Source: a virus (Duplodnaviria > Caudoviricetes). From it: a stretch of DNA of 54,331 nt. The stretch's first letter is position 1. Each line of letters begins with the position of its first letter. A program made the translations under genes and the position numbers. Below are positions 489-48,303 of the stretch, piece by piece. Below the pieces are notes generated by a model, which was not told the DNA's origin, did no database searches, and saw only the letters and a list, made by a program, of their open reading frames with translations. Location of the stretch: positions 1-54,331 of the IMG/VR virus record IMGVR_UViG_3300049137_000055; one strand, given 5' to 3'.

Positions 489-2577
489 AGCATTGGCCGC
501 GCTGGAAGCGCGCCTGAACGAAGCCGAAGCCCGCGCGCTGAAGCCGCCGCCGCGCCTGAACCTTGTCCAATGGGCGGACACCTATCGCCAGTTGGTCGGC
601 AAGTACACGGCTTCGCCGGGCGCGTGGAAGACGTCAAGCCAGCCGGTCACGTTCGGACCTATGCTGGCGGTCACGGAAATCGACACGACCGAATTGACCT
701 TCGTCGCCGCAACACAGGTTGCGAAAACCGAAATCCTGATGAACGCGGCGCTTTACTTCATCCATCAGGACCCGTCCGGAATTCTCTATGTCCTTCCCGA
801 CGACCAAACGGCGGAAGACTTTTCCAAGGAACGCTTCGCGCCGACCGTGGACGCCATGCCGGAGTTGGCCGCGCTGATCGCTCCAGCCAAGGGCCGGGAC
901 GGATTGAACACCGTCAGCCATAAGGAATATCCGGGCGGGTCCATCGACTTCGCCGGGTCTTACTCGCCAACCGGCGTCGCGTCCCGTCCAAAGCGCGTCG
1001 TCATCATGGACGAAATTGACAAGTTCGCGGCCAGCGCCGGGACGGAAGGACCGCCGCGCCTGCTGGCGGAAAAGCGCGCGTCCACCTGGAAGAAGCGCAA
1101 GAAACTCATTCGCGCGTGTTCGCCGACGATGAAGGAGACGTCGGACATTGCGGCATTGTACGAAGCCAGCGACCGGCGGCGCTGTTTCGTTATCTGTCCG
1201 CATTGCCACGACGCCGCGCCGATTACATGGGCGCGCATCAAATGGGAAAAGCTGTTACCGGACGGGACCATCACCTTCGACGTCCCGAAGGACGTCAAGG
1301 CAGTCGAACACTACCCGGACACGGCTTGCGTCATCTGCGAGGAATGCGGCGTCCCTTGGACCGAACGCGAACGCATCCTGGCGCTGAAGGCGCTGGAGCA
1401 TCAGCCGGACAAGGGCTGGCGTCAGACGCGTCCCTTCAAATGCCGGCCATGCGGCGACGAAGACGCCAAGGTCCCGTCCGCCTGGACGCCGGAGGGGCGG
1501 GCCATTTGCGAGGAATGCGAGACGCCGGCACCCTATCGCGGCCATGCCGGCTTCCATATCCCGCGCTTCCTGTCCATCCGCCACGACTTGTCCGAAATGG
1601 TCGAGTCCTTCCTGGACGCGAGGGGCGACCCTGGCAAAATGCAAATTTTCGTAAACACCGAACTGGCGGAAGTTTGGGAAGGGGCCGGCGAAGCGCTTCC
1701 GACCGCGACACTGGCCGCGCGCGCCGAAGCCTATGGACCCGACAGTCTTCCGCGCCGGGTCATGGTCCTGACCGCTGGCGTGGACGTCCAGGACAACCGC
1801 CTGGAATGTCAGGTCGTCGGATGGGGAACGAACGAAGAGTCCTGGCCGATTGCCTATCACATCGAACACGGCGACCCGTCACAGGGCGACGTCTGGCGGC
1901 GGCTGGACGACCGGCTGAAGGAAACCTATCAGACCGAAGACGGGCGGACGCTTCGGGTCCAGGCGGGTTGCGTGGACCTTGGCGGACACCATGCCGACGA
2001 AGTCTGGAAGTTCTGTCTTCCGCGCCTGAACCGCCGAATCTTCCCGACCATGGGACGGTCCGGACCGCTTCCGATTTGGAACCCGCGCCAGCAACGGTCC
2101 AAGTCTAACCGGCCTTATTGGGTCGTCGGCGTTGATAGCGCGAAGGATTCAATATATGGTCGCTTGAAACTTGACGTGAAAACCCAAGATGAACCGCAGC
2201 CCGGTTTCATCCATTTCACTCAAGGGGAGGGCTTCGGACCGGAATACTTCGACCAATTAACGTCGGAGGTCCCGCAGCTCAGAAGATCGAACGGAAGACC
2301 CTATCGCGTTTGGGTCCTTCGTCCGAAGAAGCGAAACGAAGCGCTGGATACCTTCGTTTATGCTTTGGCCGCGCGCCGCGCGCTTCCGCTCCGGATTGGG
2401 TCCGCCCGTCCGGCAGCGGAGGAAACGACAAGCCAGCCGGTCGCCGGGACCGTGAACCCGGCGGAACCCGTATCATCCGGGCTTGAAGGGGACGCGCGGA
2501 CTCCGTCGTCGCGACCCGTCAGGCCAGTCCAGGGGCGTCGCCGCGTGTCGCGGTCGTCTTACATGGGCGGCGGATGA
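472..2577 (+). CDS. terL: Terminase large subunit, lambda GpA family
   Basis: ATQVAKT Walker A variant, VIMDEID Walker B, CPHC Zn motif, LTAGVDVQ nuclease motif, RNEALD. Confidence 0.95.
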   Translation: MDSTPEALAALEARLNEAEARALKPPPRLNLVQWADTYRQLVGKYTASPGAWKTSSQPVTFGPMLAVTEIDTTELTFVAATQVAKTEILMNAALYFIHQDPSGILYVLPDDQTAEDFSKERFAPTVDAMPELAALIAPAKGRDGLNTVSHKEYPGGSIDFAGSYSPTGVASRPKRVVIMDEIDKFAASAGTEGPPRLLAEKRASTWKKRKKLIRACSPTMKETSDIAALYEASDRRRCFVICPHCHDAAPITWARIKWEKLLPDGTITFDVPKDVKAVEHYPDTACVICEECGVPWTERERILALKALEHQPDKGWRQTRPFKCRPCGDEDAKVPSAWTPEGRAICEECETPAPYRGHAGFHIPRFLSIRHDLSEMVESFLDARGDPGKMQIFVNTELAEVWEGAGEALPTATLAARAEAYGPDSLPRRVMVLTAGVDVQDNRLECQVVGWGTNEESWPIAYHIEHGDPSQGDVWRRLDDRLKETYQTEDGRTLRVQAGCVDLGGHHADEVWKFCLPRLNRRIFPTMGRSGPLPIWNPRQQRSKSNRPYWVVGVDSAKDSIYGRLKLDVKTQDEPQPGFIHFTQGEGFGPEYFDQLTSEVPQLRRSNGRPYRVWVLRPKKRNEALDTFVYALAARRALPLRIGSARPAAEETTSQPVAGTVNPAEPVSSGLEGDARTPSSRPVRPVQGRRRVSRSSYMGGG

Positions 2578-21409: not shown

Positions 21410-22372
21410 ATGACTAATCCAGACAAAGTCAGCGCCGCAGGCGAAGAAGCGATAGCCGGTTGGGAGGGCGTCGTCCTGACGCCTTATTACGACATTGCGG
21501 GCATTCTCACGAACGGCATTGGCCACACGAACGCAGCCGGCGGGGCGAAGGTCGTTCGCGGCGAGAAGTGGACTCGAGACTACGCCTTCAAGGTCTTTCG
21601 TGACGACTTGTCCCGAAGCTATGCGCCAGCGGTCTTCAGCCGCTTCGCCGGGACGCGCCTGACACAAGCCGCCTTCGACGCCTTCACGTCCCATCACTTC
21701 AATACCGGGGCGGTCAAGACGGCGTCTTATGTCGATGCGTTTAAACGCGGCGACATGGCGGACGCCAAGACGCGGTTCCTGTCGTGGGACAAGGCTAGAG
21801 TGAAGGGCAAGCTTCAGCCGGTTGCCGGGCTGACGCGCCGCCGCCGGGAGGAATGGGCGATGGCGGAGCTAGGGCAGTACCCGGCAGGCGTGAAATCGCC
21901 GCCAGCGGCCACGGCAGGCGGTCCAGCGCCCGTCCAAGACCCGACATCATCCCCAACGCGCCGCCGCACGTCGTCAAACGTCCCTGACCAAGCCGTGACG
22001 GACATTCAACGGCTGTTGACGGATCTTGGATTCTACAAGGGCAAGATTGACGGACTGTTCGGACCCGGCACAGAAAAGGCCGTGAAGTCCTTCCAGCAAA
22101 CACACCCGGACCTGACACCTGACGGCGTTGTCGGACCGGCGACCTGGAATCAACTTCTTCGGAACAAGGATCTTCGGGCGCGGGCCACGGTCACAGTCGC
22201 GGGCGGCGGGTTAACCGGCGCTGGAACAACAGCCATCCCGGACGTCCCGCTATGGTTCACGGCTGGCGTCTTGGGCGCGGTCGTCCTTGTCCTTGTCTGG
22301 CTGGCGTGGCGCTACTGGCCGGAAATCCAACAGCGGTTCACCAAGCGCCAGCCCATCACAGTTGAGGACTAG
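21410..22372 (+). CDS. Endolysin: GH24 lysozyme + peptidoglycan-binding domain + C-terminal TM helix
   Basis: E-x8-D-x5-T (WEGVVLTPYYDIAGILT), GLTRRR.EE, DGLFGPGT..AV..FQ...DGVVGP.T, hydrophobic C-terminus. Confidence 0.92.
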   Translation: MTNPDKVSAAGEEAIAGWEGVVLTPYYDIAGILTNGIGHTNAAGGAKVVRGEKWTRDYAFKVFRDDLSRSYAPAVFSRFAGTRLTQAAFDAFTSHHFNTGAVKTASYVDAFKRGDMADAKTRFLSWDKARVKGKLQPVAGLTRRRREEWAMAELGQYPAGVKSPPAATAGGPAPVQDPTSSPTRRRTSSNVPDQAVTDIQRLLTDLGFYKGKIDGLFGPGTEKAVKSFQQTHPDLTPDGVVGPATWNQLLRNKDLRARATVTVAGGGLTGAGTTAIPDVPLWFTAGVLGAVVLVLVWLAWRYWPEIQQRFTKRQPITVED

Positions 22373-23300: not shown

Positions 23301-23536
23301 TCCGGTTCATTAGACACTTCTGGAATGTCGCATGGAAGAAGGACGCCTTTCCGGACAACTTTGACGACGCCGTCCGGCGCGAGCTGGACGCGGCAAAAAG
23401 GCAATCGGAGAGGTCGAGGCAACGACTGATCCGGTCGGCACAAATCAGCGTGGATCAATCGGACCATGTCGCGTCGCTTCTGTCGGCGACGCTTCAACAA
23501 CTGAACGGGGCTGGAACTGATGCAAGACCTAATTAG
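23297..23536 (+). CDS. Hypothetical protein
   Basis: Overlaps both neighbours; RBS GAGGGA. Confidence 0.6.
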   Translation: MIRFIRHFWNVAWKKDAFPDNFDDAVRRELDAAKRQSERSRQRLIRSAQISVDQSDHVASLLSATLQQLNGAGTDARPN

Positions 23537-24038
23537 AAGCCGGACCCTTTGGGCGGGTCTGCTATGCTTCGCGGCGTTCGTGCCCTTGGCGGCATTTATC
23601 CCGCCGTCGCCGCTGTTTGAATTCCTTCACGGTATCAGAATCGCAATCGGGCTGGTTGTTCTGTTGCTGTTCGCGCCGCCAGTCTTCCAGGCGCTTCGAA
23701 CGACGCGGCTGACGGACGTCCTTCAGCTCCGGCTTGGGATCACGCTGAACGCCTTTTCTCTCGTCATGACGGGCGTCTGGCTGATCTTATGGCGGGCGAA
23801 CGGCTTCCCGCGCTGGATGGTTCAGTCCGACTTCAACGCTTGGCTACTCTGGCTTCAGATTCTTGGCTACACGCTGCACATAACAGCGCCAGCCGCGACG
23901 CCTGGAGCTGTCCCGGCGAAGTCATGGGCGTATGTTGGCGCGGCATTCGTGGCCGGGTTCGCGTTCGCTTTGTTCATGGCGTGGGTCCAGCCGGACCTAA
24001 CAGCCATCGTTGACGTCCTTCAAGGGGCGCTTGACTGA
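23520..24038 (+). CDS. Multi-pass (about 5 TM) membrane protein
   Basis: Five hydrophobic segments; last gene of late operon. Confidence 0.7.
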   Translation: MQDLIRSRTLWAGLLCFAAFVPLAAFIPPSPLFEFLHGIRIAIGLVVLLLFAPPVFQALRTTRLTDVLQLRLGITLNAFSLVMTGVWLILWRANGFPRWMVQSDFNAWLLWLQILGYTLHITAPAATPGAVPAKSWAYVGAAFVAGFAFALFMAWVQPDLTAIVDVLQGALD

Positions 24039-24082
24039 CCGAACCCGCTGGCGTTTGGACGGCTTCTGTCAGCGGTAAACTT

Positions 24083-24115
24083 GCCGCCCGCGCTGAAAGG
24101 CCGGGCGGCTCTTTT
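24083..24115 (+). terminator. Rho-independent terminator ending late operon
   Basis: GCCGCCCG/CGGGCGGC stem + TCTTTT. Confidence 0.65.
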
Positions 24116-24273
24116 CAGCGTCTTGTAAGCGCGGACCTTTTGCTGTTTACTGTCGTTGTTCAGCGGTTCTTGGCTTGGTCATTTCCTCCCGAAAGACTTC
24201 CGCGTCTGTTCGCTGAATACGGACGCGGTCTAGCGCCGCCGGGTTGTTCGAGCCTTCCCGGCGGCGCTTTTTT
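24116..24273 (+). ncRNA. Candidate trans-acting antisense small RNA (5' end uncertain)
   Basis: Intergenic; hairpin 24200-24228; 12-bp terminator stem 24232-24268 + U6 whose loop UUGUUCGAGCCUU is complementary to AAGGCTCGAA at many gene starts. Confidence 0.6.
24232..24273 (+). terminator. Rho-independent terminator with unusually large 13-nt loop
   Basis: AGCGCCGCCGGG/CCCGGCGGCGCT + T tract 24268-24273. Confidence 0.85.
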
Positions 24274-24367
24274 GTCTGACGTGGCGGAGGATTGAAGCGA
24301 AGTCCAGCGGCGACACCAACCGGATATAGACAAAGGATTCATGATCGAATCCTTTCCATCTTCAGCT

Positions 24368-24862
24368 TCAGCCGTTCCCCTTTTGCATAACCGCGAGGTC
24401 AGCCGCCTTCGCCATCCGCTCTAGCTGTTCGCGGACCTTTGCGCGGACCTTCTCTTCTTGGGTTGTCTCCAGCATGTGAAGCAATATCGGCAGCGTGGAC
24501 GACCACGTCATGGACGGCTGAAGTTCCCGCAGCTCCGCCGCTTGCTTCGACTGGTTGACAAAGCGCAGATAGGCGCGGGTCGTCATTTCCATAGCTTCGT
24601 CATGACCCTTCCAAGTTCCGACCTTGCGACCGTTGACGAAGCCGCTGAACGATCCAAGGCGGCGTCCGGCGCGTTCGACCATCAGGGAGTCTTCGCCGCT
24701 TTGGGCGCGATACATCCCGCCTTTGGACGACGGAACCATAGACCATTCAATATCGCCGGTTGCGTAGTTCATCCGCTTCGTTCCTTCGGGGGCCGCGCCG
24801 CTTTCGGCCTTCGCCCGCTTCGTGGGTCTGGACTTTGACACTTTTTCAGCCTGCATCATCAT
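24368..24862 (-). CDS. Hypothetical protein
   Basis: 164-aa ORF with RBS AGGGGA. Confidence 0.7.
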   Translation of the reverse strand: MMMQAEKVSKSRPTKRAKAESGAAPEGTKRMNYATGDIEWSMVPSSKGGMYRAQSGEDSLMVERAGRRLGSFSGFVNGRKVGTWKGHDEAMEMTTRAYLRFVNQSKQAAELRELQPSMTWSSTLPILLHMLETTQEEKVRAKVREQLERMAKAADLAVMQKGNG

Positions 24863-24940
24863 GTGAGTTGTCCCCTTTGGAGTCGTTCTAAATTCGCTCC
24901 GGCTGGCCGGACGGAGGTCCGCCCGGCTAACCGCAACGAC

Positions 24941-25348
24941 TCAGCGACCGGCGCGGGTCAAGTGCTTAGTGACATATGATAGAAAGGTAAACTTTCCGGA
25001 TGATTTAATTTCGCCGAACGGCGTCCAGGACTGGCGTCCGTCCCGTTCCGCTTGGTCTTCGTCCCTCCAGTGCTGGCCAAGGCGGCACATCAGCGACCAA
25101 ATGCCATGGACCTTCGCCAGACCGCGTTCGTAGCGGACCGCCATGAAGAGGTCGTAAAGGTCCGCGCCACGGTCGCGGCGGCGGTTCTGGAACTTCATTC
25201 GGCAAGGGGAGGTGCAAAAGGCGGCTTCCCGGCGGTCTGTCCCGAAGGACTCGCCGCATTCACGACAGGCGCGGCGGAACAGATAGGCCGGACGGTTCGG
25301 ACGTGGCGCTGGCGGCGCGTCTAAGGTGAATTCTTCTTGGAACAGCAT
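24941..25348 (-). CDS. Zn-finger (CxxC...CxxxC) protein
   Basis: CRECG...FCTSPCR...NRR..RGA.LYD; start follows AAGGCTCGAA motif. Confidence 0.75.
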   Translation of the reverse strand: MLFQEEFTLDAPPAPRPNRPAYLFRRACRECGESFGTDRREAAFCTSPCRMKFQNRRRDRGADLYDLFMAVRYERGLAKVHGIWSLMCRLGQHWRDEDQAERDGRQSWTPFGEIKSSGKFTFLSYVTKHLTRAGR

Positions 25349-25351
25349 GGT

Positions 25352-25361
25352 TTCGAGCCTT
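25352..25361 (-). promoter_or_regulatory. AAGGCTCGAA start-associated motif
   Basis: AAAGGCTCGAAACC-ATG(25348). Confidence 0.8.
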
Positions 25362-25482
25362 TTGCAGAGCGACAAACCGCCGCCCATGGATCGAGAATTA
25401 TTTATGAACGATGGCACTTTCAAGACGAAAGTTCCAAGAATTCGCCGCTATCATCCTTCCTGAGTAGGATTCGGGCCTTAAG

Positions 25483-25512
25483 AAACAAAAAACCCGGCGC
25501 TTGGCCGGGCTT
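25483..25512 (-). terminator. Rho-independent terminator
   Basis: CCCGGC/GCCGGG stem with U tract on minus strand. Confidence 0.75.
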
Positions 25513-27863: not shown

Positions 27864-28099
27864 CGCGGCATCTTTTCCCGAAGGCCGCGCGAAATTTCCG
27901 CGACCTTCGCTTCAAAGGTTCGGCGGGCTTCCGCCGACCAATGCTGGTCGACGGTTTCCCGCATTCCCGCTTCCATGTTCTGGAGCATCAGCGCCGCCGT
28001 CAGCGGATCGCCGTCGCCGATAAGGGCGACGGAAACTTCCGCGACGGCGACGACGCCGGCCATGGCGTTGACCAAGTCCATGACGTCGTCGCTGGCCAT
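27860..28099 (-). CDS. Hypothetical protein
   Basis: Coupled to recT (TGATG) and rnhA (ATGA). Confidence 0.65.
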   Translation of the reverse strand: MASDDVMDLVNAMAGVVAVAEVSVALIGDGDPLTAALMLQNMEAGMRETVDQHWSAEARRTFEAKVAEISRGLREKMPR

Positions 28100-29283
28100 C
28101 ACTGACCGCCTGACTGTTCGGCGTACTTCGCCGCGTCGCGAAGGCGCTTGAATTCGTCGCGATAGATCTTCGCGGCGGCGTCGTTCGCCTTCAGGTCCGC
28201 CGGGACAAGCGCGGCCTTCCCGGCTGCGAAGTCCGCCTTGGCGCGGGCTTTGATGGACGCTTCATCGACGCTAGACGACGCTTCATTGGTCGTTGACGGC
28301 TGTTCATTGGCCGTTGAATCGTCGTCAAGGCGCGTTGAAGCGCCTTCATCGACGCCAGAACCGCCGTCTGGCCGCGCGTCGTCGCCGCTGGCGGCGTTGA
28401 AGTCCTGGCCAGTGTCTTCGTCGCCGCCGGACGCCGGATCGCCGCCAGCGGTCAAATTTTCAAGCTGTTTGAATTCGCCCGTCTCCGGGTCGTGGGGGAT
28501 TTGGTCCGCCGCCTTGGCGAAGGCGTCGAGCGCGGCGGAGGTCCCGCGACCGCCAACGGCCTTCGTTTCGGCTGACCGCTCTTCGCGCTGTTCGTTGAAG
28601 TCATACAGGTCATCGTCCCGGCGGACCAAGTCGTCCAGGTCCGCAGAGGTCGGAAGCTGTTTGGCGTGGCGCTTGACAACCGTCTTCTTCGCCATCTCCG
28701 GGAAGAACGTTGGGTCCGACCAAGGACCGTTCGCGGACTTGGACTTCGCCTGGATCTTCTTGACGTCGTTCAGGTCCATGACGTCGAAGGACGGACGGTC
28801 GGCGGGCGCGCCCTTCAGCCATGCGATGGAGTAAACGCCGACCATCTTTCCACGGTCGACTCCCAACTTCGGCGGCTTGTGCTTCAGGAACGGGTCCGAC
28901 CCGAATTCATAGTCAAATTCGTCGTTTTCATAGACGGCTTGTGCGATCCAATCCAGGATTTCGCCGGAGTTGCGGGCGCGCTTGCGGATACCCTGGACCA
29001 TGGGAATCCATTGGACCTGTCCCTTATAGGGGACCATTGCGCCTTCGCGGCCATCGGGGAGAAGGCCGTCTTGAGCGGATTGCATGGCCGCATTCCAGAA
29101 CGACCGGCGGTCCATGTTGGCAAGATCCGGCGTCTTGTTCAGCGCCGTCAGCAGGACGCGCTTGAAGCGCTCCGGCGGGATATGGGTCGGAAGGGCCGGC
29201 GTGAACTGTGCCAATGTGGCGGGCGTGTTGATTTCGCTTCGGAGGGCGACAAGCGCTTGTTGTGATGCGGGGACGTTCGCCAT
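28099..29283 (-). CDS. recT: RecT-family single-strand annealing protein
   Basis: ALPTHI..ERF, AQDGL.PDG, AVYENDEF...G, GPW...F.EMAKKTV.KR..K.LP; acidic tail. Confidence 0.93.
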   Translation of the reverse strand: MANVPASQQALVALRSEINTPATLAQFTPALPTHIPPERFKRVLLTALNKTPDLANMDRRSFWNAAMQSAQDGLLPDGREGAMVPYKGQVQWIPMVQGIRKRARNSGEILDWIAQAVYENDEFDYEFGSDPFLKHKPPKLGVDRGKMVGVYSIAWLKGAPADRPSFDVMDLNDVKKIQAKSKSANGPWSDPTFFPEMAKKTVVKRHAKQLPTSADLDDLVRRDDDLYDFNEQREERSAETKAVGGRGTSAALDAFAKAADQIPHDPETGEFKQLENLTAGGDPASGGDEDTGQDFNAASGDDARPDGGSGVDEGASTRLDDDSTANEQPSTTNEASSSVDEASIKARAKADFAAGKAALVPADLKANDAAAKIYRDEFKRLRDAAKYAEQSGGQ

Positions 29284-29285
29284 GA

Positions 29286-30230
29286 CTATGCTTCCTCTGT
29301 TTCGCTGGCGGTTGCTTTGGCCTTCTTCTTCGTGACCCGCAGGACGCGGAACGATGAAGCGGCGACGGTCACTTCCTTTCGGGACTGTTCCTTCCAGGAA
29401 ATGTTGAAGTCTGGATGGATGGCGACGTCCGCGCCTTTCAAGGCGTCAATCAGCTCCGCCTTCAGGACGTCCAGCGCGCCTTCGCAGTTGCGGCGGCGCT
29501 CCGCCCATTCCAGGTATTGTTGCGCCAGTTCTCCGGCGCGGTTGTGCGTGGTCAGGTCAATCTTATCCAGCTTCACGTTGCGCCAGCGGGCTTCGATAAT
29601 GTCCAGGTCCAGGTTGTAGGACGGTTCTGGCCAGTCGTTGGCTTCGAACTTGGTCCAGAAGTCCGCCGCCAGTTCGCGGATGCGCGCTTCGGCTCCGGCG
29701 TGGCGCTCCAGTTCGATGATGACCGGGCGGTCGGCGTTGTCGGACATGCGAACAAGCGCCGCCACGACCGCGAAGTCCGCGTCTGCCAACATGGCGTTGG
29801 TCAGCGCCTGGAGGACATAGCGAAGCGGCGGCTGGTCTTCCGTCCACTGGCTGTCAAAGACGTTGCGCGTGACGGACTTGCATTCGAGAATCCCGCGCTT
29901 CCCGTTCGGCTTAATGACGAAGCCGTCCGGCGTGGAGCCTAGGCGGAGCTCCGGCGCGCGAAGATAGACCTTGGCGCGCGAGGTCTTCCAGTCTGGCCGC
30001 TCTTCCTGGAGCATTTCCACGATAGCGGCTTCGTGCCAGCGCCCGCGCTTCATCGCGTCGGAATCCATCGCGGGCTTGTGGCCGGCCTTGTCGGCATAGA
30101 CCGCGAACGGTCCGGCGTAGGGGTTCGCGCCAGCCAGCGTTCCAATGTCGGTCGCCGTCACGTCCTGGCGGCGCAAGGCCAGCCAGCTTTCGCGGTCTGT
30201 GATTTCGTGCGTTTCAACATTCAACTTCAT
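29286..30230 (-). CDS. YqaJ-like viral recombinase exonuclease
   Basis: WL..RR..VTATD, RGR.HE, STPDG, ILECKS, Y..Q; upstream of recT. Confidence 0.92.
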   Translation of the reverse strand: MKLNVETHEITDRESWLALRRQDVTATDIGTLAGANPYAGPFAVYADKAGHKPAMDSDAMKRGRWHEAAIVEMLQEERPDWKTSRAKVYLRAPELRLGSTPDGFVIKPNGKRGILECKSVTRNVFDSQWTEDQPPLRYVLQALTNAMLADADFAVVAALVRMSDNADRPVIIELERHAGAEARIRELAADFWTKFEANDWPEPSYNLDLDIIEARWRNVKLDKIDLTTHNRAGELAQQYLEWAERRRNCEGALDVLKAELIDALKGADVAIHPDFNISWKEQSRKEVTVAASSFRVLRVTKKKAKATASETEEA

Positions 30231-30239
30231 TCGAGCCTT
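30230..30239 (-). promoter_or_regulatory. AAGGCTCGAA start-associated motif
   Basis: GGAAGGCTCGA-ATG(30230). Confidence 0.8.
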
Positions 30240-36290: not shown

Positions 36291-38402
36291 ATGTCATCAG
36301 GCTCGAAACTGGACCAACACATTGAAACAGTCGCCAAGGCGCTGTTCGGCGACGACCTGAATCGCCACCTGTCGAAGCCGGGGAAGGAACTTCGCTTTGG
36401 GACGCATGGGTCCCTATCCGTCGATTTGCAAAAGGGGACGTTCTTCGACTTCGAGGACGGCGGACCTGACGCGGGCGGCGGCGTCCTGGATTTGCTCCGG
36501 AAATATCGCGGCATGGACACGGCGGCGGCGCTGAAGTTCATGGAAGGCGAACTTGGCCTGGACATTAAGCGGGAAGGGGACGACGGCGAATCCTGGAAGG
36601 ACCGGCCACGCGAGGAACGCGCGCCGCGCCAGTCCAGCCCGCGCCAGTCGAAGCCGCGCGAGCAAGCCAACGGCGTGAAGTTTGAGAAGCAAAAGCCGCG
36701 CGGGAAGCCGGTCGCGTTCTATGATTATCAGGACTTCGAAGGCCGGCTGTTTCTTCAGGTCGTCCGCTATGAAATGCCGGACGGGTCAAAGACCTTCCGC
36801 CAGCGGACTCCGAAGGTTCGCGAGCCGCGCAACGATGCGCCGGGCGACTGGAACTGGACGGCGGAAGGCGTCGAGCTTCTTCCCTATCGCCTGCCGGAGC
36901 TCATGGAAGACCTGGCACAAGACCGGACCGTCTTCCTGATCGAAGGCGAAAAGGCGGTGGACTACCTTCGCGCGCAAGGCATCCCGGCGACATGCAACCC
37001 GATGGGACGCGGCAAAATCAACAAGCTGTCGCCGCGCTTCTTCGAGCTGTTCAAGGACGGCGACGTGGTCGTCATCGGCGACAACGATCCGGACGGCGGC
37101 GGTCAGCAACACGCAACCCAAATGGGCGAACGCCTGGAAGACCACGCGCGCCGGGTCCGGGTCATTCCCGCCTGTCCGGGCGTGAAGGAGAAGGGCGGCG
37201 CTGACGACTGGCTGGCGGACGGACATTTCCCGGATGAATTGTATGAGCTGGCGACCGTCCATGGCGTGGACGTGGAAGAGTTGCCGCCGGTCTCTCTTTT
37301 GGGAGCCATCAGCCCGCTTGAAATCATGAAGAACGTCCGCCGGGTCGAATGGCTGGCGGACGGGATCATTTCGACCGGGTCAACATGCGTCATCTATGGC
37401 GGCTCCGGCTCCGGCAAGTCGCTTCTGGTCATGGACCTGGCCATGGCCATCGCGCGCGGAACGCAATTCCTGGACATCGACGCCAAACAGGCGGGCGTTC
37501 TCTACCAAGCGGGCGAATCCTATGCCAACCAACGGCGGCGCATCGTCGCCTATATGACCCGCCACGGCATTGATAAGGACTTCCCGTTCCGGCTGCTGGA
37601 ACGGCGCGTCAACCTGTTCACCAAGCCGGAGGACGTGGACGCCTTAATCGCAGAGATCCGCGCGCAAGATGAATACTTCCGCCGGGTCTTTAACGGCGTC
37701 GGGGTCGGCGTCGTCATCATCGACACACTGGCGGCGGCGACGGCTGGAGCTGTCGAGAATGCCAGCGAAGACATGACGAAAATCACGGACATTATTGAAC
37801 GGGTCCAGCGCGAAGCGAAGGTCGCCGTCATCGTGGTCCACCATACGAACGCGGTTGGCGAGCGCGAACGCGGTCATGGCGCGCTTCGTGGCGCGGTTGA
37901 CTTCATGGTCCGGGTCGAACACGACAAGGAAACCAACATCCGGACGCTGGAGGTTGACAAGAACAAGGAAGGGGCCATCGGCCTTAAGCGATTCTTCCGC
38001 GCCGAAGGTCAGGAATTCCAGACGCCGGATGGCTTCACGGAAGCGGCGGGCGTCATCATCCAGACGGACGACTATGGCGAACGGCAGAGGAAGGAAGGCC
38101 GGCGTTTGCCGGATAAGGTCGTCCTGGCCAAACGCATTCTGGCGGACACGCTGGCGGACCGTGGCGTGACCGGGAAGGGCGGCGTCCCGATTGGCGTCAA
38201 CGCGGTCACATGGGACGTCTGGCGTGACGTCGCCTTCGGCAAAATGGCCGGGCTGGACGACACCATCCGCGCCGACAAGGACGCTTATCGCAAGGCGCAA
38301 CTGTCCTTTACCAAGGAATTGCAGGACTGGACCCGGACCCTGATGACGCGCGGGGAGGTCGGACGGAGCGACGACGGAAAGTTCGTCTGGCTGGCGCGGT
38401 AG
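36291..38402 (+). CDS. Primase-helicase (Toprim + AAA_25/RepA-type helicase)
   Basis: LRFGTHGSLSVDL, LIEGEKA, DND..G Toprim; GGSGSGKS Walker A; IIDT; VVHH; RGHGAL. Confidence 0.92.
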   Translation: MSSGSKLDQHIETVAKALFGDDLNRHLSKPGKELRFGTHGSLSVDLQKGTFFDFEDGGPDAGGGVLDLLRKYRGMDTAAALKFMEGELGLDIKREGDDGESWKDRPREERAPRQSSPRQSKPREQANGVKFEKQKPRGKPVAFYDYQDFEGRLFLQVVRYEMPDGSKTFRQRTPKVREPRNDAPGDWNWTAEGVELLPYRLPELMEDLAQDRTVFLIEGEKAVDYLRAQGIPATCNPMGRGKINKLSPRFFELFKDGDVVVIGDNDPDGGGQQHATQMGERLEDHARRVRVIPACPGVKEKGGADDWLADGHFPDELYELATVHGVDVEELPPVSLLGAISPLEIMKNVRRVEWLADGIISTGSTCVIYGGSGSGKSLLVMDLAMAIARGTQFLDIDAKQAGVLYQAGESYANQRRRIVAYMTRHGIDKDFPFRLLERRVNLFTKPEDVDALIAEIRAQDEYFRRVFNGVGVGVVIIDTLAAATAGAVENASEDMTKITDIIERVQREAKVAVIVVHHTNAVGERERGHGALRGAVDFMVRVEHDKETNIRTLEVDKNKEGAIGLKRFFRAEGQEFQTPDGFTEAAGVIIQTDDYGERQRKEGRRLPDKVVLAKRILADTLADRGVTGKGGVPIGVNAVTWDVWRDVAFGKMAGLDDTIRADKDAYRKAQLSFTKELQDWTRTLMTRGEVGRSDDGKFVWLAR

Positions 38403-38481: not shown

Positions 38482-38491
38482 GAGGCTCGAA
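38482..38491 (+). promoter_or_regulatory. Start-associated motif variant GAGGCTCGAA
   Basis: GGAGGCTCGAAACACCC-ATG(38498). Confidence 0.75.
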
Positions 38492-38497: not shown

Positions 38498-38638
38498 ATG
38501 GGCTATATTGTCCGCTATATCGCCGCCCGGCTGGCCTTCCAGGCTCTTCAGCGTGTCGGCGTCTGGAATCTCTTCGTTGCGGTCGGCTTTGTCGCCGTCG
38601 CTGTCTTCCTCTTCCTGGCGCTTCACTGGAAGGGCTGA
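38498..38638 (+). CDS. Small single-TM membrane protein
   Basis: 46 aa, hydrophobic C-terminal half. Confidence 0.65.
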   Translation: MGYIVRYIAARLAFQALQRVGVWNLFVAVGFVAVAVFLFLALHWKG

Positions 38639-39777: not shown

Positions 39778-39957
39778 ATGGCACACGAATATCTGAGCAA
39801 GACCCGCCTTGTTGAAGAGGTCCCCGGCGCACCTGATCGGTATTACATCTGGCACAACCGGAAAGTTGTGTGGCGCGGAGACACGGCCCAAGAGGGGCGA
39901 GAGTGGGCTACCGCGAACGGTATCTCCATAGAAGTCTTTGAGCCGTTTGAGCCGTAG
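39778..39957 (+). CDS. Hypothetical 59-aa protein (absent from ORF track)
   Basis: RBS GAGGTG; MAHEYLSKTRLVEEVPGAPDRYYIWHNRKVVWRG... Confidence 0.6.
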   Translation: MAHEYLSKTRLVEEVPGAPDRYYIWHNRKVVWRGDTAQEGREWATANGISIEVFEPFEP

Positions 39958-41206: not shown

Positions 41207-42295
41207 GTGCATATTCTGAGACGGATTCACCATGCCATCACGCGCCGCCTGATCCTGCTTTTATTTCTTAAGCGGAGGGTCTACGAAGCGCGGTTCCGCC
41301 GCGCTTTCGGCGAGAGGAAGCCCGTCGAACTGGTCCACGGCCAGCGGCATTTCCCCGGCGGGCGACACGCCATCTTCTTGATTTGGCAACCGGAGCAAAC
41401 CGCTTGGTACGTGCGGAACGCTCTTGACGCATTGGCCAAGGCTCATGTGAACGTCCTCTTGGTCGTCAATCACAATCTGACGGAGGAACGTCGTCGGGAG
41501 CTCGCCGCGCAATGTGCCAAGATCATGATACGCGACAACACTGGCTTTGACATTGGCGGTTTCCAAGACGCCACGGCCTTCCTTTACAAGCACACTGACG
41601 CGGAGCGGGTCCTATACCTGAACGACAGTGTATATTTCTTTCGCGAAGGCTTGGCGGAACTGTTCGAACGCCTGGCCAACTCTAAGGCGGATGTTTGCAG
41701 CGCCTTCGAGAATTGGGAAATCCACTATCATTTTCAATCGTTCTGCTTGTCTATCTCCGGCGATATGTTGCGACACCCGAAAGTCCTGAAGTTCTGGAAC
41801 GATTACCTTCCAGTTAATTCGCGGCGTTGGGCCATCGACCAAGGCGAGGTCGGTTTTTCGCGCGCCATGCTGCCAGCAGCCGCCAGCATCGAAGTTCTTT
41901 ATACACCTCCCCGGCTGAAGTCCGAACTTCTGTCCCTTCCCCTTGACGACCTACGCATGATGGACCGCTATTTGCCGGCCACGCTCCGGTTAGGTCCGGA
42001 GAGGATTAAAAAGCTATCCAAGCCGGAACTTGTTCGCGAATTGTGCGAAAGAGTAGCCATGCGATCACAGGTCCACAGCGGCGGGTTTTTGTTCCGGCGC
42101 TTTTCCGGCAACCCGCTGATGAAAAAAGATTTGGTCTACCGCGAACAGTTCAGCCTTTATGACGTCGAAGCCATGCTTGAAGAGTTGGGAAGCGAAGGTC
42201 ATGCAGACGAGATCCTGAGCGACTTCCGGCGCAAGGGGCGCGGCATTCTCATGACGGGACTGAAACGGCGTCTGTTCGATGAGGGAATTCTGTAG
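41207..42295 (+). CDS. Rhamnan-synthesis protein F (RgpF)-like polysaccharide enzyme
   Basis: RDNTGFDIGGF, LNDSVYF, HFQSFCL, FW, GEVGFSR, PLMKKD motifs. Confidence 0.75.
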   Translation: MHILRRIHHAITRRLILLLFLKRRVYEARFRRAFGERKPVELVHGQRHFPGGRHAIFLIWQPEQTAWYVRNALDALAKAHVNVLLVVNHNLTEERRRELAAQCAKIMIRDNTGFDIGGFQDATAFLYKHTDAERVLYLNDSVYFFREGLAELFERLANSKADVCSAFENWEIHYHFQSFCLSISGDMLRHPKVLKFWNDYLPVNSRRWAIDQGEVGFSRAMLPAAASIEVLYTPPRLKSELLSLPLDDLRMMDRYLPATLRLGPERIKKLSKPELVRELCERVAMRSQVHSGGFLFRRFSGNPLMKKDLVYREQFSLYDVEAMLEELGSEGHADEILSDFRRKGRGILMTGLKRRLFDEGIL

Positions 42296-42950
42296 CGCCT
42301 GGACGGCTGGCGCTGACCGGGACTCCCATGCGAAGGGCGGCGCAAGCCGCCTTTTTCTTATCTGGTAGACTCTTTCTATCGGTCGTGTTCAGCCTCTTGA
42401 ACCCGCACGGCTTCAGCCATGCCAGCCACTCCGGCGAAACGATCCGGACCACGTTGGGAAGGTTCTTCAGGTCGCCCGGTATCCGCCGCCGCGTGACCGT
42501 CACGAAGCCAGCCGCAACCGCCGCCCGAAGGCCATTCTGAACCGTCGTCCTGGACACGCCAGCCCGCGCCGCTATCGCGTCCAGGACCAAGCCACAGAAC
42601 CCGCGCGCCCGGACTTCGTCGGCAACGATCCGGAGCGCGGCCAATTCCCCTTCCGTGAACCGCGCGGCCATAGCAGGCGGCATCACGCCGGATCGCGCGA
42701 GCTGGCGGCGTCTGGCCACCGCGACAGGTCTGGACGGCGGTCGCTGGAGCCGGCGCGGCGGACCGACCGGGCGTCCCCTTCCCTGCCCTTCCCTGATGGC
42801 CACGCGGCGCGCCTGGATGGCTTCCGCCAGCGATTGGACGTGGTCGTCCGACATGGCGTCCATGGCGGCATAGATCGCGCGCGACAGGTCGTCCAGGCGC
42901 GCGCCCGTCCACGCGCCCGCAATGGCGCGCGTCATCGTCTCATAGATCAT
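42249..42950 (-). CDS. Putative plasmid-type replication initiator (winged HTH)
   Basis: IAARAGVSRTTVQNGLR.....GFVTV.RR......NL.N wHTH; divergent from parA; structured leader. Confidence 0.55.
   Translation of the reverse strand: MIYETMTRAIAGAWTGARLDDLSRAIYAAMDAMSDDHVQSLAEAIQARRVAIREGQGRGRPVGPPRRLQRPPSRPVAVARRRQLARSGVMPPAMAARFTEGELAALRIVADEVRARGFCGLVLDAIAARAGVSRTTVQNGLRAAVAAGFVTVTRRRIPGDLKNLPNVVRIVSPEWLAWLKPCGFKRLNTTDRKSLPDKKKAACAALRMGVPVSASRPGATEFPHRTDAVSVPS
42336..42356 (+). terminator. Rho-independent terminator after rgpF-like gene
   Basis: GGCGGC-GCAA-GCCGCC-TTTTT. Confidence 0.85.
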
Positions 42951-43039
42951 CGTTCAGCCTTCCCTTCCGGGTTGGCCGCGCGACGGCAAAAGCCGCCCGT
43001 TCGCGGGACTTGCGTCCAGCGTCGATTTATGGAAATGTC

Positions 43040-43457: not shown

Positions 43458-44156
43458 ATGGCGGTTCTTGTGTTAGGGACACCGAAAGGCGGGGCGGGGA
43501 AAAGCACGTCAACGCTTTTGATTGGAACGACCTTGGCGCGTCGTGGCGCGAAGGTGACGGTCATCGACGCCGATAAAAACAAAGACCTTATGGACTGGTA
43601 CGGCAACGGCGGGAAACCTATCAAGGTTATTCCGGCTGGCACGGAAGACGGTTTCGTGTCGAAGCTGGATAAGGAAGCGGCCAGCGCGGACTTGGTCATC
43701 ATCGACCTTGCTGGCGCGGCCATCGGCGGCGCAATGTCCAACATCATGTCCAGGTCCATCTTGCGCGCTGACCTTGTGTTGGTCCCCATGCAACCAAGCC
43801 GCCTGGACGCCAAACACGCGGCGCGAATGGTGGACCTGATAAAGCAAGAGGCGGAAGTTCTCCGGACGTCCATTCCGTTCCGGATGTTTCTGACACAGAC
43901 AAGTGAAGCGGTTCCGACGCGCGCAACAAAGCGCATCGTTGCGCAGATGGAAAAGAAGGGGTTCCCGTTCCTTCGGACGCAAGTCGGGAAGCGTGAACCA
44001 TTTCGAAGTCTTTTTGAGAGAGATTGCACCCTGGACCAACTGACCGTGAAAGAGTTCCCAACGCTTCCGCAAGCCGTCGAGAATGCGGAGAAGTTCACGG
44101 ACGAAGTCGTCGCGGTTCTGAAGTCCATCGTTGCGAAAGGGAAGGCGGCAGCATGA
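43458..44156 (+). CDS. parA: ParA partition ATPase (type Ib)
   Basis: KGGAGKST deviant Walker A, IDADKN, VIIDLAG, ADLVLVPMQPS.LD. Confidence 0.93.
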   Translation: MAVLVLGTPKGGAGKSTSTLLIGTTLARRGAKVTVIDADKNKDLMDWYGNGGKPIKVIPAGTEDGFVSKLDKEAASADLVIIDLAGAAIGGAMSNIMSRSILRADLVLVPMQPSRLDAKHAARMVDLIKQEAEVLRTSIPFRMFLTQTSEAVPTRATKRIVAQMEKKGFPFLRTQVGKREPFRSLFERDCTLDQLTVKEFPTLPQAVENAEKFTDEVVAVLKSIVAKGKAAA

Positions 44157-44588: not shown

Positions 44589-44936
44589 ATGGCGCAAGTC
44601 GTGACGAAGGTTCGGGGGGACGATTGGTCGTTCCCTTTTACATGGCGCGTAAAAGGCGGCGCGGGCGTTGACCTGACCGGCTACACGGTCGGCGCGGATT
44701 TCTACCGGGCTTATAACGCGACGCCGGTCGAAATGGTCGAAGGCAGCGGCGTGACCGTCCTTGACCGCGAGGCCGGCAAGTTTGAAGTCACGGTCGCGAG
44801 CGAGGTCACGGCTTCCGTCACGCCGCAACGTTCACAGACGCCGGAGATTGCGACCCGGCTTCATGTTTACGTTGTCACGCCGGGCGGCAACCGCGAAACC
44901 CTTGGCGTCATCCCGGTCCGCGTGGTGGCACCATGA
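44589..44936 (+). CDS. Second fibre adaptor (BppU-like)
   Basis: RGDDW....., VDLTGYT, GVTVLD..AGKF; paralogous to 19060-19407. Confidence 0.7.
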   Translation: MAQVVTKVRGDDWSFPFTWRVKGGAGVDLTGYTVGADFYRAYNATPVEMVEGSGVTVLDREAGKFEVTVASEVTASVTPQRSQTPEIATRLHVYVVTPGGNRETLGVIPVRVVAP

Positions 44937-45976
44937 ACGAAGTTATCATCACGACGCTGGCGACCGAACTTGTGTTAAGCGAGGCGGGCGCTTCGTTTGA
45001 ACTGGTCATAGAAACACCCATCATTGAAACGCTCGAAATCATCGAACAAGGACCGCAAGGACCGCCGGGGACAGGCGGAACCGGCGGCGAAGGCAGCGGC
45101 GCGGACGGTCTGTCGGCGTATCAGGTCGCTACGAAAAACGGCTTCGTCGGGACGGAAACGCAATGGCTGGCCAGCCTGAAGGGCGCGAAAGGCGACAAAG
45201 GCGACACTGGCGCGACCGGACTGAAAGGCGACACTGGACAGCAAGGTCCCCAAGGCTTGCCGGGTCCGAAGGGAGATCCCGGCGCGACCGGCGAGCGCGG
45301 CTTACAGGGCGAACAAGGCATCCAAGGCGAAGCGGGACCGCAAGGCTTGCCGGGCGTCAAAGGCGATCCAGGCGAAGCGGGTCCGCAAGGCTTGAAGGGC
45401 GATCCTGGCGAACCCGGCGCAACCGGGGCCAAAGGCGACCAAGGCTTGCCGGGACCAAAAGGCGACACTGGCGCAACCGGCGAAGTCGGACCCGCCGGAG
45501 CTAAGGGCGACCCTGGCGCGACAGGTCCGAAGGGCGACACCGGGGACGTTGGACCGCAGGGATTGAAAGGCGACACCGGAGCGACCGGACCAAAGGGCGA
45601 CAAGGGCGACAAGGGCGACCAAGGCGAACCCGGCGCGCCTGGCACAACGCGATATGACATGAGCCTATATGTCGGCGGCAAGCCCGGCGCGAGCGAACGG
45701 CTTCTGTTGCACGTCGCCGTCACGGCGTTTTCCCTGCCGGCGAACCTGACCGGAAGCCGCGGATTCGCGGGCGTCGCACCAACGGCTTCCGTCGTGCTGT
45801 CGCTCCGGAAAAACGGGACGCAATTCGGGACGGCGACCTTCGCGGCGAGTCAGACGGTCGCCACATGGGCGGGAACAGCGACAGCCTTCGCCATCGGCGA
45901 CCGGCTGGAAATCGTCGCTCCAGCACAGGACGCGACCTTCGCGGATCTTGCGCTAACACTTGTCGCGACAAGGTAG
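44933..45976 (+). CDS. Collagen-like fibre protein
   Basis: About 52 uninterrupted Gly-X-Y triplets; SAYQVA..NGFVGTE.QWLASL; beta-rich C-terminal domain. Confidence 0.88.
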   Translation: MNEVIITTLATELVLSEAGASFELVIETPIIETLEIIEQGPQGPPGTGGTGGEGSGADGLSAYQVATKNGFVGTETQWLASLKGAKGDKGDTGATGLKGDTGQQGPQGLPGPKGDPGATGERGLQGEQGIQGEAGPQGLPGVKGDPGEAGPQGLKGDPGEPGATGAKGDQGLPGPKGDTGATGEVGPAGAKGDPGATGPKGDTGDVGPQGLKGDTGATGPKGDKGDKGDQGEPGAPGTTRYDMSLYVGGKPGASERLLLHVAVTAFSLPANLTGSRGFAGVAPTASVVLSLRKNGTQFGTATFAASQTVATWAGTATAFAIGDRLEIVAPAQDATFADLALTLVATR

Positions 45977-47021: not shown

Positions 47022-47290
47022 GACTTCTTCGCCCGCTCTTCCAGCATGGCGTCCGCAGCCATATATGCGGCTTGCGCGAATTCCGCGAAGGTCATTCCAT
47101 TGGCTTCGCCTTTCGACGTCGCCAGTCCGGCCATGACCTGTCCGGCGAAATAGTCGCGAAGGGTCATTCCCGTCATGTGATGTGTCCAGGCAGGCGGAAC
47201 GACCTGTCCGTCCGGCGCGGTCGCGTTGCGGTCGCCGTCGTTCGTCCAGCTTGCGGGGAAGGCGGGCGGGTTGTTTCTGTTCGTCATCAC
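47018..47290 (-). CDS. Conserved phage hypothetical protein
   Basis: PAFP...GMTLRDYFAGQ...AY..ADAML.ER. Confidence 0.8.
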   Translation of the reverse strand: MMTNRNNPPAFPASWTNDGDRNATAPDGQVVPPAWTHHMTGMTLRDYFAGQVMAGLATSKGEANGMTFAEFAQAAYMAADAMLEERAKKS

Positions 47291-47565
47291 AGCTCACCTT
47301 TCGCGCGCGCCGCCCGGATCACGTCTCCATATTTTTCAATCCGCCCGCTGTCCAAGGTCCAGCGCGACACATAGTAGAATTCGCCATCGTCCACGAGTCG
47401 TTCTTCCCAGGGATCTGACCGGCGTTCGCCTTGTTCCGTGAAACGCGGGAGGGTCAGCGTCACGGTCCGCAGGAAGCCGCCGCCCGGCTGTCCCCATGTC
47501 CGCGACTGTTCTTCGCGGTCAGGGATTGTTACCGTGATTGTGTCCTGGTCTGTTACTGTTGCCAT
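47287..47565 (-). CDS. Hypothetical protein
   Basis: Start MATV follows AAGGCTCGAA motif. Confidence 0.7.
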   Translation of the reverse strand: MATVTDQDTITVTIPDREEQSRTWGQPGGGFLRTVTLTLPRFTEQGERRSDPWEERLVDDGEFYYVSRWTLDSGRIEKYGDVIRAARAKGEL

Positions 47566-47569: not shown

Positions 47570-47579
47570 TTCGAGCCTT
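47570..47579 (-). promoter_or_regulatory. AAGGCTCGAA start-associated motif
   Basis: TGAAAGGCTCGAAACCT-ATG(47565). Confidence 0.8.
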
Positions 47580-47660: not shown

Positions 47661-47990
47661 TCATTCTTCCGACTTGCCGTTCAACTCTTCCTTCAGATAG
47701 TCCCGGACGAACTTTAGTGGCCACATGCGAGACTTGTTCTTCCTGAAAGCCTGTTCCGCTCTAGCGATGGCGTTTTCGTAGGCCGTCGCTCTATCGACCG
47801 GAGCAACCGCCGGACCGCGCGTCGCATTGTCGGCAGCAATCCAAAACGCCTTCAGTTGGCGTTCCAACTCTTCAAGCCCGGACTGCAATTCCGGGACATG
47901 GTCGCGCGCCACAAGGGCGGCGTTCTGGACGCTGAGATGGGCGGAGCCGACAAGGTCGGCGATATACTTGGCTTCTTTCGGGTCGGTCAT
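47661..47990 (-). CDS. Hypothetical protein
   Basis: 109 aa; motif directly before ATG. Confidence 0.7.
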   Translation of the reverse strand: MTDPKEAKYIADLVGSAHLSVQNAALVARDHVPELQSGLEELERQLKAFWIAADNATRGPAVAPVDRATAYENAIARAEQAFRKNKSRMWPLKFVRDYLKEELNGKSEE

Positions 47991-48000
47991 TTCGAGCCTT
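47991..48000 (-). promoter_or_regulatory. AAGGCTCGAA start-associated motif
   Basis: CTGAAAGGCTCGAA-ATG(47990). Confidence 0.8.
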
Positions 48001-48293: not shown

Positions 48294-48303
48294 TTCGAGC
48301 CTT
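48294..48303 (-). promoter_or_regulatory. AAGGCTCGAA start-associated motif
   Basis: CTGAAAGGCTCGAAACG-ATG(48290). Confidence 0.8.

Follow-up and report, generated by a model that had tools for sequence, protein, structure and literature searches.

A start-associated sequence of a soil phage and its exact complement in a terminator loop: a possible antisense control of tagged genes

The virus record IMGVR_UViG_3300049137_000055 (54,331 bp, direct terminal repeats, 61% G+C) represents a soil phage and is analysed here over its whole length, referred to below as the window. Its late operon is followed by a terminator-like hairpin, T2, whose loop is the exact complement of a 10-nt motif situated at the ribosome-binding sites (RBSs) of eight of the phage's genes, and the locus thereby poses a question: does this loop merely close a terminator, or does it address the genes that carry the motif? 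The observations set out below take the match out of the realm of chance, place the motif within a described class of phage sequences, and make a translational shut-off by an RNA tied to late transcription a tentative answer.

The start-site motif and the T2 hairpin

The 10-mer AAGGCTCGAA occurs nine times without mismatch in the window, with 0.09 copies expected, a count that none of 100 shuffled sequences reaches; with up to one mismatch, 20 copies are found where 4.5 are expected. All eight copies outside the hairpin lie 0-6 nt before a start codon (seven ATG, one TTG) and in the orientation of their gene, one of them overlapping its ATG by 1 nt, so that the initial annotation was right in describing the complement of the loop as standing before eight genes on both strands (five on the minus strand, three on the plus strand; Table 1). 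The tagged genes, distributed between 24.9 and 52 kb, are all non-structural, and none of the approximately 30 structural and lysis genes of the block 3-24038 bears the motif. The ninth copy is inverted and occupies the T2 loop, where the sense motif reads on the minus strand.

Across the upstream regions of approximately 90 open reading frames (ORFs), the ordinary RBSs of this phage consist of (G)AAGG or AAAGG followed by varied spacers. Judged against these sites of the phage's own, AAGG in the motif appears to be the Shine-Dalgarno core and CTCGAA(AC) an additional conserved spacer, a part that varies in the other genes. TGA precedes four of the eight copies, extending the core to GAAAGG.

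Motifs of this kind were described as start-associated sequences (SAS) in mycobacteriophages of cluster K, where, according to the available part of Pope 2011 (PMC3203893), 11-19 non-structural genes carry a 13-nt motif at their RBS whose conservation exceeds what 16S rRNA pairing accounts for; the motif is asymmetric, and related phages keep it, often ahead of unrelated genes. The accessible text of Jacobs-Sera 2020 (PMC7302621) adds a second case, in cluster EF Microbacterium phages, and papers of 2024 and 2025 still describe the SAS role as "ill-defined" or as requiring experimental verification. The motif examined here shares the traits that characterise SAS, namely repetition far above chance, a position at the RBS in gene orientation and restriction to non-structural genes, and on sequence grounds it can be classed as an SAS, the term denoting a class and not a homologous family. 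An ESAS-like hairpin upstream of the copies was considered and dropped, as these upstream regions hold no common 8-mer, no common structure and no ESAS-like element.

Imperfect copies extend the set. The ninth target of the initial annotation, said to pair with the loop through G-U, is indeed present, 6 nt before the ATG of a short ORF, and the sequence GTTCAGCCTTCCC at 42952-42964, which had been likened to the loop and stem, turns out to be the opposite-strand reading of the RBS region that belongs to the minus-strand gene 42249-42950. A further one-mismatch copy in the primase/helicase-like gene lies inside the initiation footprint, downstream of the ATG, where it cannot serve as a Shine-Dalgarno sequence and may have arisen by chance. 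As to the variant GTTGTTCAGC at 24155-24164, it does exist as a single match, although it carries no significance alone, since 20 of 100 shuffled sequences contain one.

The placement of the copies also bears on the level at which the motif is read. A site on DNA for a DNA-binding protein, nuclease or recombinase whose system also uses T2, as a cruciform or hairpin in the DNA, is a very improbable explanation: an RNA signal predicts that eight of eight gene copies follow the orientation of the gene at 0-6 nt from its start, whereas a double-stranded DNA site does not require it. On the other side, operator-like repeats occur elsewhere in the phage, and DNA-binding proteins were favoured for the ESAS repeats in the part of Pope 2011 (PMC3203893) available.

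T2 itself lies in the intergenic stretch 24039-24367 between convergent operons, 134 nt beyond T1, the canonical terminator of the late operon. The 12-bp stem, the 13-nt loop and the plus-strand T6 (24268-24273) proposed in the initial annotation are all in place, the two arms being 100% complementary; the loop (24244-24256) reads TTGTTCGAGCCTT in DNA, and its 10-mer TTCGAGCCTT (24247-24256) is the reverse complement of AAGGCTCGAA. The stem is the strongest in the window, and the loop is outsized, for among 14 distinct terminator-like hairpins only one has a larger loop, and that one lies inside a gene. T2 thus has the stem and U tract of an intrinsic terminator but not the short loop, typically of 3-8 nt, and it is absent from a consensus terminator scan that covers loops of 3-8 nt. 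Because T1 already terminates the late operon and T2 combines the strongest stem with an outsized loop, the evidence points to a loop kept for its sequence.

With four terminator-like hairpins having loops of at least 10 nt, approximately 13 10-mer positions and either orientation allowed, the probability of a chance loop match is about 2.5e-5 by our own arithmetic. Given this value, the excess of copies over expectation and the position of the sole copy away from gene starts exactly in a hairpin loop, the complementarity of motif and hairpin is not due to chance.

Tandem terminators are common at operon ends, and T2 could be a second, back-up terminator of the late operon whose loop copy has no role in trans, being a by-product of SAS-cassette recombination or a relic. 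Such an origin would sit well with the existence of SAS systems devoid of an anti-SAS (see below) and with the failure of any promoter of T2's own between T1 and T2 to pass a consensus scan. Yet one would not look for a relic gene start between perfect 12-nt inverted arms, no start codon follows the copy, the loop is oversized relative to the phage's other terminators, the chance probability is low, and the unrelated SAS system of cluster K likewise has its single inverted SAS in a hairpin loop; we regard the back-up terminator as unlikely.

On the plus strand, the T1-T2 stretch is predicted to fold into three stem-loops ending in the terminator (-52.4 kcal/mol, z -3.9), with the T2 loop unpaired in both the minimum free energy (MFE) and centroid folds. 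The second stem-loop is the hairpin at 24200-24228 named in the initial annotation, with 24200-24209 pairing with 24219-24228; its plus-strand fold has 10 pairs and the minus-strand centroid 7, the U-G pair becoming an A-C mismatch there. The CUCCC loop of stem-loop 1 resembles an anti-Shine-Dalgarno sequence. A U tract follows the T2 stem on the plus strand only; on the minus strand A6 precedes the stem, which no U tract follows. As T6 is confined to the plus strand, the U-G pair of stem-loop 2 is lost on the other strand and the plus fold is the more stable, these cues appear to favour plus-strand transcription of T2. An RNA driven by the weak pair of promoter-like hexamers downstream of T1 would start near 24160 and be approximately 113 nt long.

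Two small reading frames were rejected as genes: the minus-strand ORF 24160-24342 (60 aa), which falls below the GC3-GC2 cut-off of the coding screen, and an 11-codon ORF after GGGAGGAA, in which the gap from Shine-Dalgarno sequence to ATG is only 2 nt. A string of 11-12 nt, GCGCGGACCTT(T), is found between T1 and T2 (24129-24140), twice in tandem in the gene 24368-24862 (24430-24451) and inverted at 25156-25167.

The novelty check suggested in the initial annotation gave no Rfam match at gathering thresholds anywhere in the window. Below threshold, 13 of 15 matches fall on the plus strand, most of them to small RNA (sRNA) families, the best being ncS54 (RF02871, 26.5 bits against a gathering threshold of 43), sX13 (RF02232, 25.4 against 50), mmgR/suhB (RF00519, 15.7 against 41) and CcsR1 (RF02791, 12.4 against 65.3). 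In the ncS54, sX13 and Rhizobiales-2 Rfam alignments the best-aligned part is a generic terminator hairpin.

Table 1. Features of the window discussed in the text (positions in the 54,331-bp record)
Feature	Position	Strand	Basis or details
T2 hairpin	24232-24273	+	perfect 12-bp stem (24232-24243/24257-24268), 11 G-C pairs, 13-nt loop UUGUUCGAGCCUU, then U6
T1, canonical intrinsic terminator ending the lysis/late operon	24083-24116	+	stem GCCGCCCG/CGGGCGGC, extended around a GAAA loop, then TCTTTTC
Promoter-like hexamers	24123-24151	+	TTGTAA (24123-24128), 17-nt spacer, TTTACT (24146-24151); visual reading, 4/6 + 4/6 consensus matches
Stem-loop 1 of the candidate RNA	24177-24198	+	5-nt C-rich loop CUCCC (24186-24190); MFE and centroid fold
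Stem-loop 2 of the candidate RNA	24200-24228	+	24200-24209/24219-24228, 10-bp stem, one U-G pair, 9-nt loop; inverted-repeat search, fold
SAS copy	25352-25361	-	3 nt before ATG 25348, gene 24941-25348 (135 aa, phrog_20494, no assigned function)
SAS copy	30230-30239	-	overlaps ATG 30230 of the YqaJ/RecE-like exonuclease gene by 1 nt
SAS copy	47570-47579	-	4 nt before ATG 47565, gene 47287-47565 (92 aa)
SAS copy	47991-48000	-	abuts ATG 47990, gene 47661-47990 (109 aa)
SAS copy	48294-48303	-	3 nt before ATG 48290, gene 48042-48290 (82 aa), first leftward gene of the divergent control region
SAS copy	48495-48504	+	6 nt before ATG 48511, gene 48511-48819 (102 aa), first rightward gene of the divergent control region
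SAS copy	49682-49691	+	2 nt before TTG 49694, 39-codon membrane-peptide ORF 49694-49813
SAS copy	51824-51833	+	2 nt before ATG 51836, gene 51836-52360 (174 aa)
One-mismatch SAS GAGGCTCGAA, G-U pair with the loop kept	38482-38491	+	6 nt before ATG 38498, 46-codon ORF just upstream of the sigma-factor-like gene; -16.8 kcal/mol
Degenerate SAS GGGAAGGCT-GAACG, one base missing	42951-42964	-	abuts ATG 42950, gene 42249-42950 (phrog_15967, divergent from parA); -14.2 kcal/mol, rank 12
One-mismatch SAS-like copy CAGGCTCGAA then AC (CAGGCTCGAAAC)	36298-36307	+	+8 to +17 of the AAA_25 primase/helicase-like gene; -15.3 kcal/mol, rank 10
Divergent control region	48304-48494		
Terminase large subunit	472-2577	+	protein comparison
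Endolysin	21410-22372	+	Pfam/PHROGs scan
Last late gene, membrane protein	23520-24038	+	
RecT	28099-29283	-	Pfam/PHROGs scan
YqaJ/RecE-like exonuclease gene	29286-30230	-	

A possible anti-SAS RNA and its alternatives

In silico pairing of the 13-nt loop with the region from -35 to +21 of 89 gene starts places the eight SAS genes, together with the G-U variant, at ranks 1-9 (-15.8 to -18.4 kcal/mol; median -9.2), in line with the expectation of the initial annotation that the motif genes would head such a list. The primase/helicase-like gene (10), the last late gene and the gene at 42950 (12) follow. Perfect matches of 10-12 nt connect the loop to eight RBSs, and at the exonuclease gene the copy with its upstream GG gives 12 nt complementary to loop plus stem and ranks first at -18.4 kcal/mol.

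A parallel comes from cluster K. According to the available part of Pope 2011 (PMC3203893), Anaya, Adephagia, Angelica and CrimD each have one inverted SAS copy that is not at a gene start. In Anaya this copy (one mismatch) falls in the 385-bp non-coding gap between gp96 and gp97 and forms the loop of a two-tier hairpin at 59849-59902 of the record (39850-39903 of the stretch examined); on the transcribed strand its 10 nt, CCUCCUAUCC, make up the loop of an inner hairpin that a longer stem encloses. This gap is conserved in 182 cluster K records, and the two-tier hairpin is kept across an alignment of 12 of these phages, with compensatory changes in 3 of 16 pairs. The same hairpin is found in the gap between genes 92 and 93 of Adephagia (1657-1710 of the stretch examined), where late transcription "appears to initiate" in the available text of the published Adephagia study. 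The genes beside the gap all lie on one strand in both Anaya and Adephagia, so an RNA from this gap would carry the anti-SAS and not the SAS. Approximately 100 nt upstream of the loop a TAGACT is conserved, which could be the -10 element of the cluster K late promoter, the source text giving no start site. Rfam has no curated family for the gap and returns only terminator-like partial matches. Two unrelated SAS systems thus seem, from their sequences, to share a lone inverted copy exposed in a non-coding hairpin loop beside late transcription. A literature search that did not cover supplementary tables and figures found no paper linking the inverted copy to a hairpin loop or an antisense role, and the SAS survey PMC12699233 contains no mention of antisense, hairpin, sRNA, reverse or opposite orientation.

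It is on this basis that the following mechanism is proposed. The SAS, AAGGCUCGAA in RNA, would combine a weak Shine-Dalgarno core, (G)AAAGG, with the conserved spacer CUCGAA(AC) and so tag eight to nine non-structural genes. Transcription of the plus strand 3' of the lysis cassette would yield an RNA ending at T2 (24273), either a small RNA of approximately 113 nt driven by its own weak promoter in the T1-T2 stretch or the 3' portion of late transcripts that fail to stop at T1, and the 13-nt terminator loop of this RNA would display the exact complement of the SAS. As the RNA accumulates, the loop may pair with the SAS on the tagged mRNAs, cover the RBS and lower translation, leading to a shut-off of early and non-structural genes that is tied to late transcription and keyed to the tag. 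We assign to this anti-SAS RNA, whose transcription, pairing in vivo and repression we infer, a probability of roughly 0.4. The proposal of the initial annotation that one RNA silences a genome-wide regulon survives in so far as the anatomy fits a plus-strand RNA ending at 24273, with an accessible anti-motif loop and the motif genes as its top partners; its variant of immunity based on RNA alone fares less well. The other variant, an early-gene shut-off released from the late transcript, gains indirect support from the location of the hairpin after the lysis cassette and from the Anaya-type inverted copy in a gap where late transcription starts.

Several observations weigh against this proposal. 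The pairing ranking is to some extent circular, the motif having served to define the targets. Ten contiguous pairs in a closed 13-nt loop are sterically strained, and partial loop pairing would be likelier unless the stem opens. No promoter between T1 and T2 passes a consensus scan, whose consensus may not be that of the host. The minus strand of the T1-T2 stretch also folds, at -48.2 kcal/mol and z -3.55, with the sense motif in the same loop; with z near -3.5 to -3.9 on both strands, folding alone does not decide the strand. The cluster K parallel is itself uneven. The anti-SAS CCTCCTATCCC is present in 7 of the 12 aligned loops, while the other five have diverged and are CU-rich (Unicorn, Krueger, Amgine, Amohnition and Shandong1, which offer only imperfect SAS pairing), and the alignment leaves out Keshu, whose loop is unrelated, and KiSi, which is without the inner hairpin. 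Unicorn, Amgine and Keshu retain 17-18 SAS copies in forward orientation but none that is inverted, even with two mismatches allowed, and the whole record of the cluster EF phage AnnaSerena has 10 forward copies and likewise no inverted one at up to two mismatches. Because these four phages have forward copies only, SAS systems can exist without a perfect anti-SAS, which is therefore not a necessary part of such a system, and the cluster K anti-SAS may be a feature of one lineage.

A three-mismatch inverted copy before gene 20 of AnnaSerena was examined as an anti-SAS and rejected, as it belongs to a local hairpin that pairs the gene's own Shine-Dalgarno sequence. This GTCCTT...AAGGAC hairpin (1322-1349 of the stretch examined) looks like a cis-acting anti-Shine-Dalgarno element unrelated to the SAS copies.

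The searches for relatives and transcripts add to the points on the opposing side. A blastn search of 23500-25500 in INPHARED gave no match, and protein, terminase, RecT and DNA-pattern queries recovered no relative of the phage from INPHARED, IMG/VR, JGI metagenome contigs or GTDB genomes. In IMG/VR, the neighbouring protein retrieved no relative, the terminase reached 36-37% identity at best, again with no relative, and the 19-nt loop plus stem ends gave 0 matches. RecT queries of IMG/VR and JGI metagenome contigs peaked at 49-51%, with no locus bearing the repeated motif and one bearing a single copy. The 15-mer TGAAAGGCTCGAAAC is found in 47 IMG/VR stretches, one copy each, and at the level of the 10-mer 45 of them have one copy and two have two, which is the chance level. 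Five matches of the 19-mer in GTDB genome contigs, where approximately four are expected by chance, have no flanking inverted repeat and look like coding DNA, and a 10-mer frequency scan of the loci retrieved showed only tandem or low-complexity repeats. No RNA run containing the sequence is listed, the sole run being DNA from a soil metagenome and perhaps the source of the record; its contigs at 80% likeness provide only pieces of 36-44 nt, which leave 24068-24334 uncovered and show no variants.

The strand question leads to a protein-based explanation, in which the SAS would be a protein-binding site, in the manner of T4 RegA, and the minus-strand 3' untranslated region of the leftward operon would show the sense motif in its loop as a decoy or titration site. 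The leftward operon ends at 24368 and is followed by only a weak terminator-like hairpin (24332-24355), so that its transcripts may reach T2; the minus strand does fold well, with the sense motif in the loop. Against this, the U tract is on the plus strand only, the SAS in the mRNAs is not displayed in a comparable hairpin loop, and the RNA of the Anaya and Adephagia gaps would carry the complement of the site and not the site. A Pfam/PHROGs scan of 55 ORFs found no RNA-binding family, a weak argument given that most of these ORFs have no match at all. Whether SAS act through "either RNA or protein" was left open in the available part of Pope 2011 (PMC3203893); for this phage we consider the decoy improbable.

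The converging operons raise a further alternative, that plus and minus transcripts over 24039-24367 form double-stranded RNA, or that the loop pairs with SAS on the same long rightward transcript, altering RNA stability. Convergence itself and the weak minus-strand termination would allow the former, and the latter could draw on the three SAS genes that share the strand of the late operon in a terminally repeated genome. With the plus-strand SAS copies 26-30 kb upstream of T2 and five of eight copies on the other strand, such a cis effect is hardly credible as the explanation.

Should the anti-SAS RNA be real, the class of conserved phage motifs to which the SAS belong would gain a mechanism, and phages an RNA route for the early-to-late shut-off beside protein routes such as those of T4 RegA and RegB. 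The SAS and anti-SAS pair could then provide translational control with a compact, orthogonal tag and anti-tag. The SAS question, open since 2011, would also become a concrete experiment, as RNA-seq and recombineering exist for Adephagia and Anaya on M. smegmatis; cluster K phages serve mycobacterial genetics and are therapy candidates.

Control region and genome setting

The divergent control region, whose first genes in both directions carry an SAS, bears on the choice between shut-off and immunity. Between 48402 and 48876 there are four exact direct copies of GGGACAAATT and one with a mismatch, three of them in the control region beside a TTGACA and one after the gene 48511-48819; these repeats are candidate operators of a protein regulator. 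Structure comparison gives the product of 48511-48819 weak winged-helix look-alikes, which serve as a lead only, and finds none for that of 48042-48290. The description in the initial annotation of a phage with no CI is called into question by these repeats and look-alikes. A protein switch probably exists in the phage, and RNA-only immunity is therefore the weaker variant; late shut-off is favoured over it because the hairpin ends the late operon and the control region suggests a protein-based switch. A one-mismatch SAS, ACGGCTCGAA, lies in the same region at 48421-48430 on the minus strand, away from any start codon and approximately 130 nt upstream of the first leftward gene.

The packaging, head, tail and lysis genes occupy positions 3 to 24038 of the plus strand. 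Positions 33503 down to 24368 form a block on the minus strand that includes RecT, the YqaJ/RecE-like exonuclease and an RNase H-like protein, and the remaining 33.5-54.3 kb hold further non-structural genes, among them those of AAA_25 primase/helicase-like, sigma-factor-like, ParA and methyltransferase proteins. The closest terminases are 35-39% identical and belong mostly to phages of Alphaproteobacteria, as do all of the top three. The ParA-like ATPase gene (43458-44156) is divergent from the gene of a phrog_15967 protein (42249-42950) with a weak winged-helix signal. No integrase turned up among the 55 ORFs scanned with Pfam or PHROGs, and together with parA this hints at a P1-like plasmid-prophage lifestyle.

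The ORF 38448-39116 matches phage sigma-factor families over its C-terminal part (phrog_3282, 2.4e-13). This sigma-factor-like gene probably starts downstream of the 46-codon ORF 38498-38638, which bears the SAS variant, and may encode a late-gene sigma factor. An RgpF-like (rhamnan synthesis) protein (41207-42295) and a collagen triple-helix repeat protein (44933-45976), both encoded amid non-structural genes, are possible host-surface-modifying or accessory functions.

Comparison with known systems

The closest counterpart of the tag is the SAS of clusters K and EF. As far as the available parts of the cited SAS papers describe them, both consist of an over-conserved motif of 10-13 nt at the RBS of approximately 10-19 genes, in the orientation of the gene and confined to non-structural genes, and both join a Shine-Dalgarno core to further conserved bases, which in clusters K and EF cannot pair with 16S rRNA and here may be of the same nature; like the Anaya-type cluster K phages, the present phage has one extra inverted copy away from gene starts. 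The sequences are unrelated (AAGGCTCGAA against GGGATAGGAGCCC and GGGAAAGGACCCC), as are the phages, the genes tagged here lie on both strands, and no common upstream ESAS-like element accompanies the motif. The inverted copy is 3' of the late operon here, whereas the cluster K copy occupies the gap that late transcription starts from.

The initial annotation overstated the novelty of the arrangement, as its RBS motif is of a described kind and loops that bind many RBSs are known. C-rich loops bind G-rich RBS motifs of many mRNAs in S. aureus RNAIII, through hairpins 7, 13 and 14 (PMC2837412), and in Xanthomonas sX13 (PMC3771888), and M. tuberculosis 6C is a C-rich-loop sRNA of the same kind (PMC6486639), to judge from the available parts of these sources. 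In both these RNAs and the one proposed here, an apical loop, including a terminator-proximal one, would pair with the shared RBS motif of a regulon and block translation, and several stem-loops are present, stem-loop 1 having a CUCCC loop as well. The difference, on the same partial sources, is that RNAIII, sX13 and 6C are host-encoded with a generic 4-nt anti-Shine-Dalgarno core, whereas the present loop is phage-encoded and makes a specific 10-nt match to a dedicated tag. Nor is it a member of the sX13 family, with a score about half of the gathering threshold.

Among phage regulators, the P4 CI RNA is a small RNA with an exposed sequence that pairs with phage mRNA at or near the RBS. The P1/P7 c4 antisense RNA (Citron & Schuster 1990), as the available part of PMC8201110 describes it, acts on one operon (icd-ant) in an immunity region; the RNA proposed here would likewise be a phage small RNA pairing with phage mRNA at or near the RBS, in a phage that also has parA, but it would have approximately 9-12 dispersed targets and be encoded where the late operon ends. 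In the window, no Rfam family, including any that covers c4-type RNAs, reaches its gathering threshold. T4 RegA is a translational repressor of many early mRNAs at the RBS, and T4 RegB is a nuclease that cuts GGAG in early Shine-Dalgarno sequences. Both achieve a phage-wide early shut-off through a shared RBS signal, as is proposed here, but their effectors are proteins, and no homologue of either turned up in this phage, where no search aimed at them was made. What is new in the present case is the combination: a private 10-nt tag on the phage's own genes, its exact complement in a terminator loop, and the link of both to SAS.

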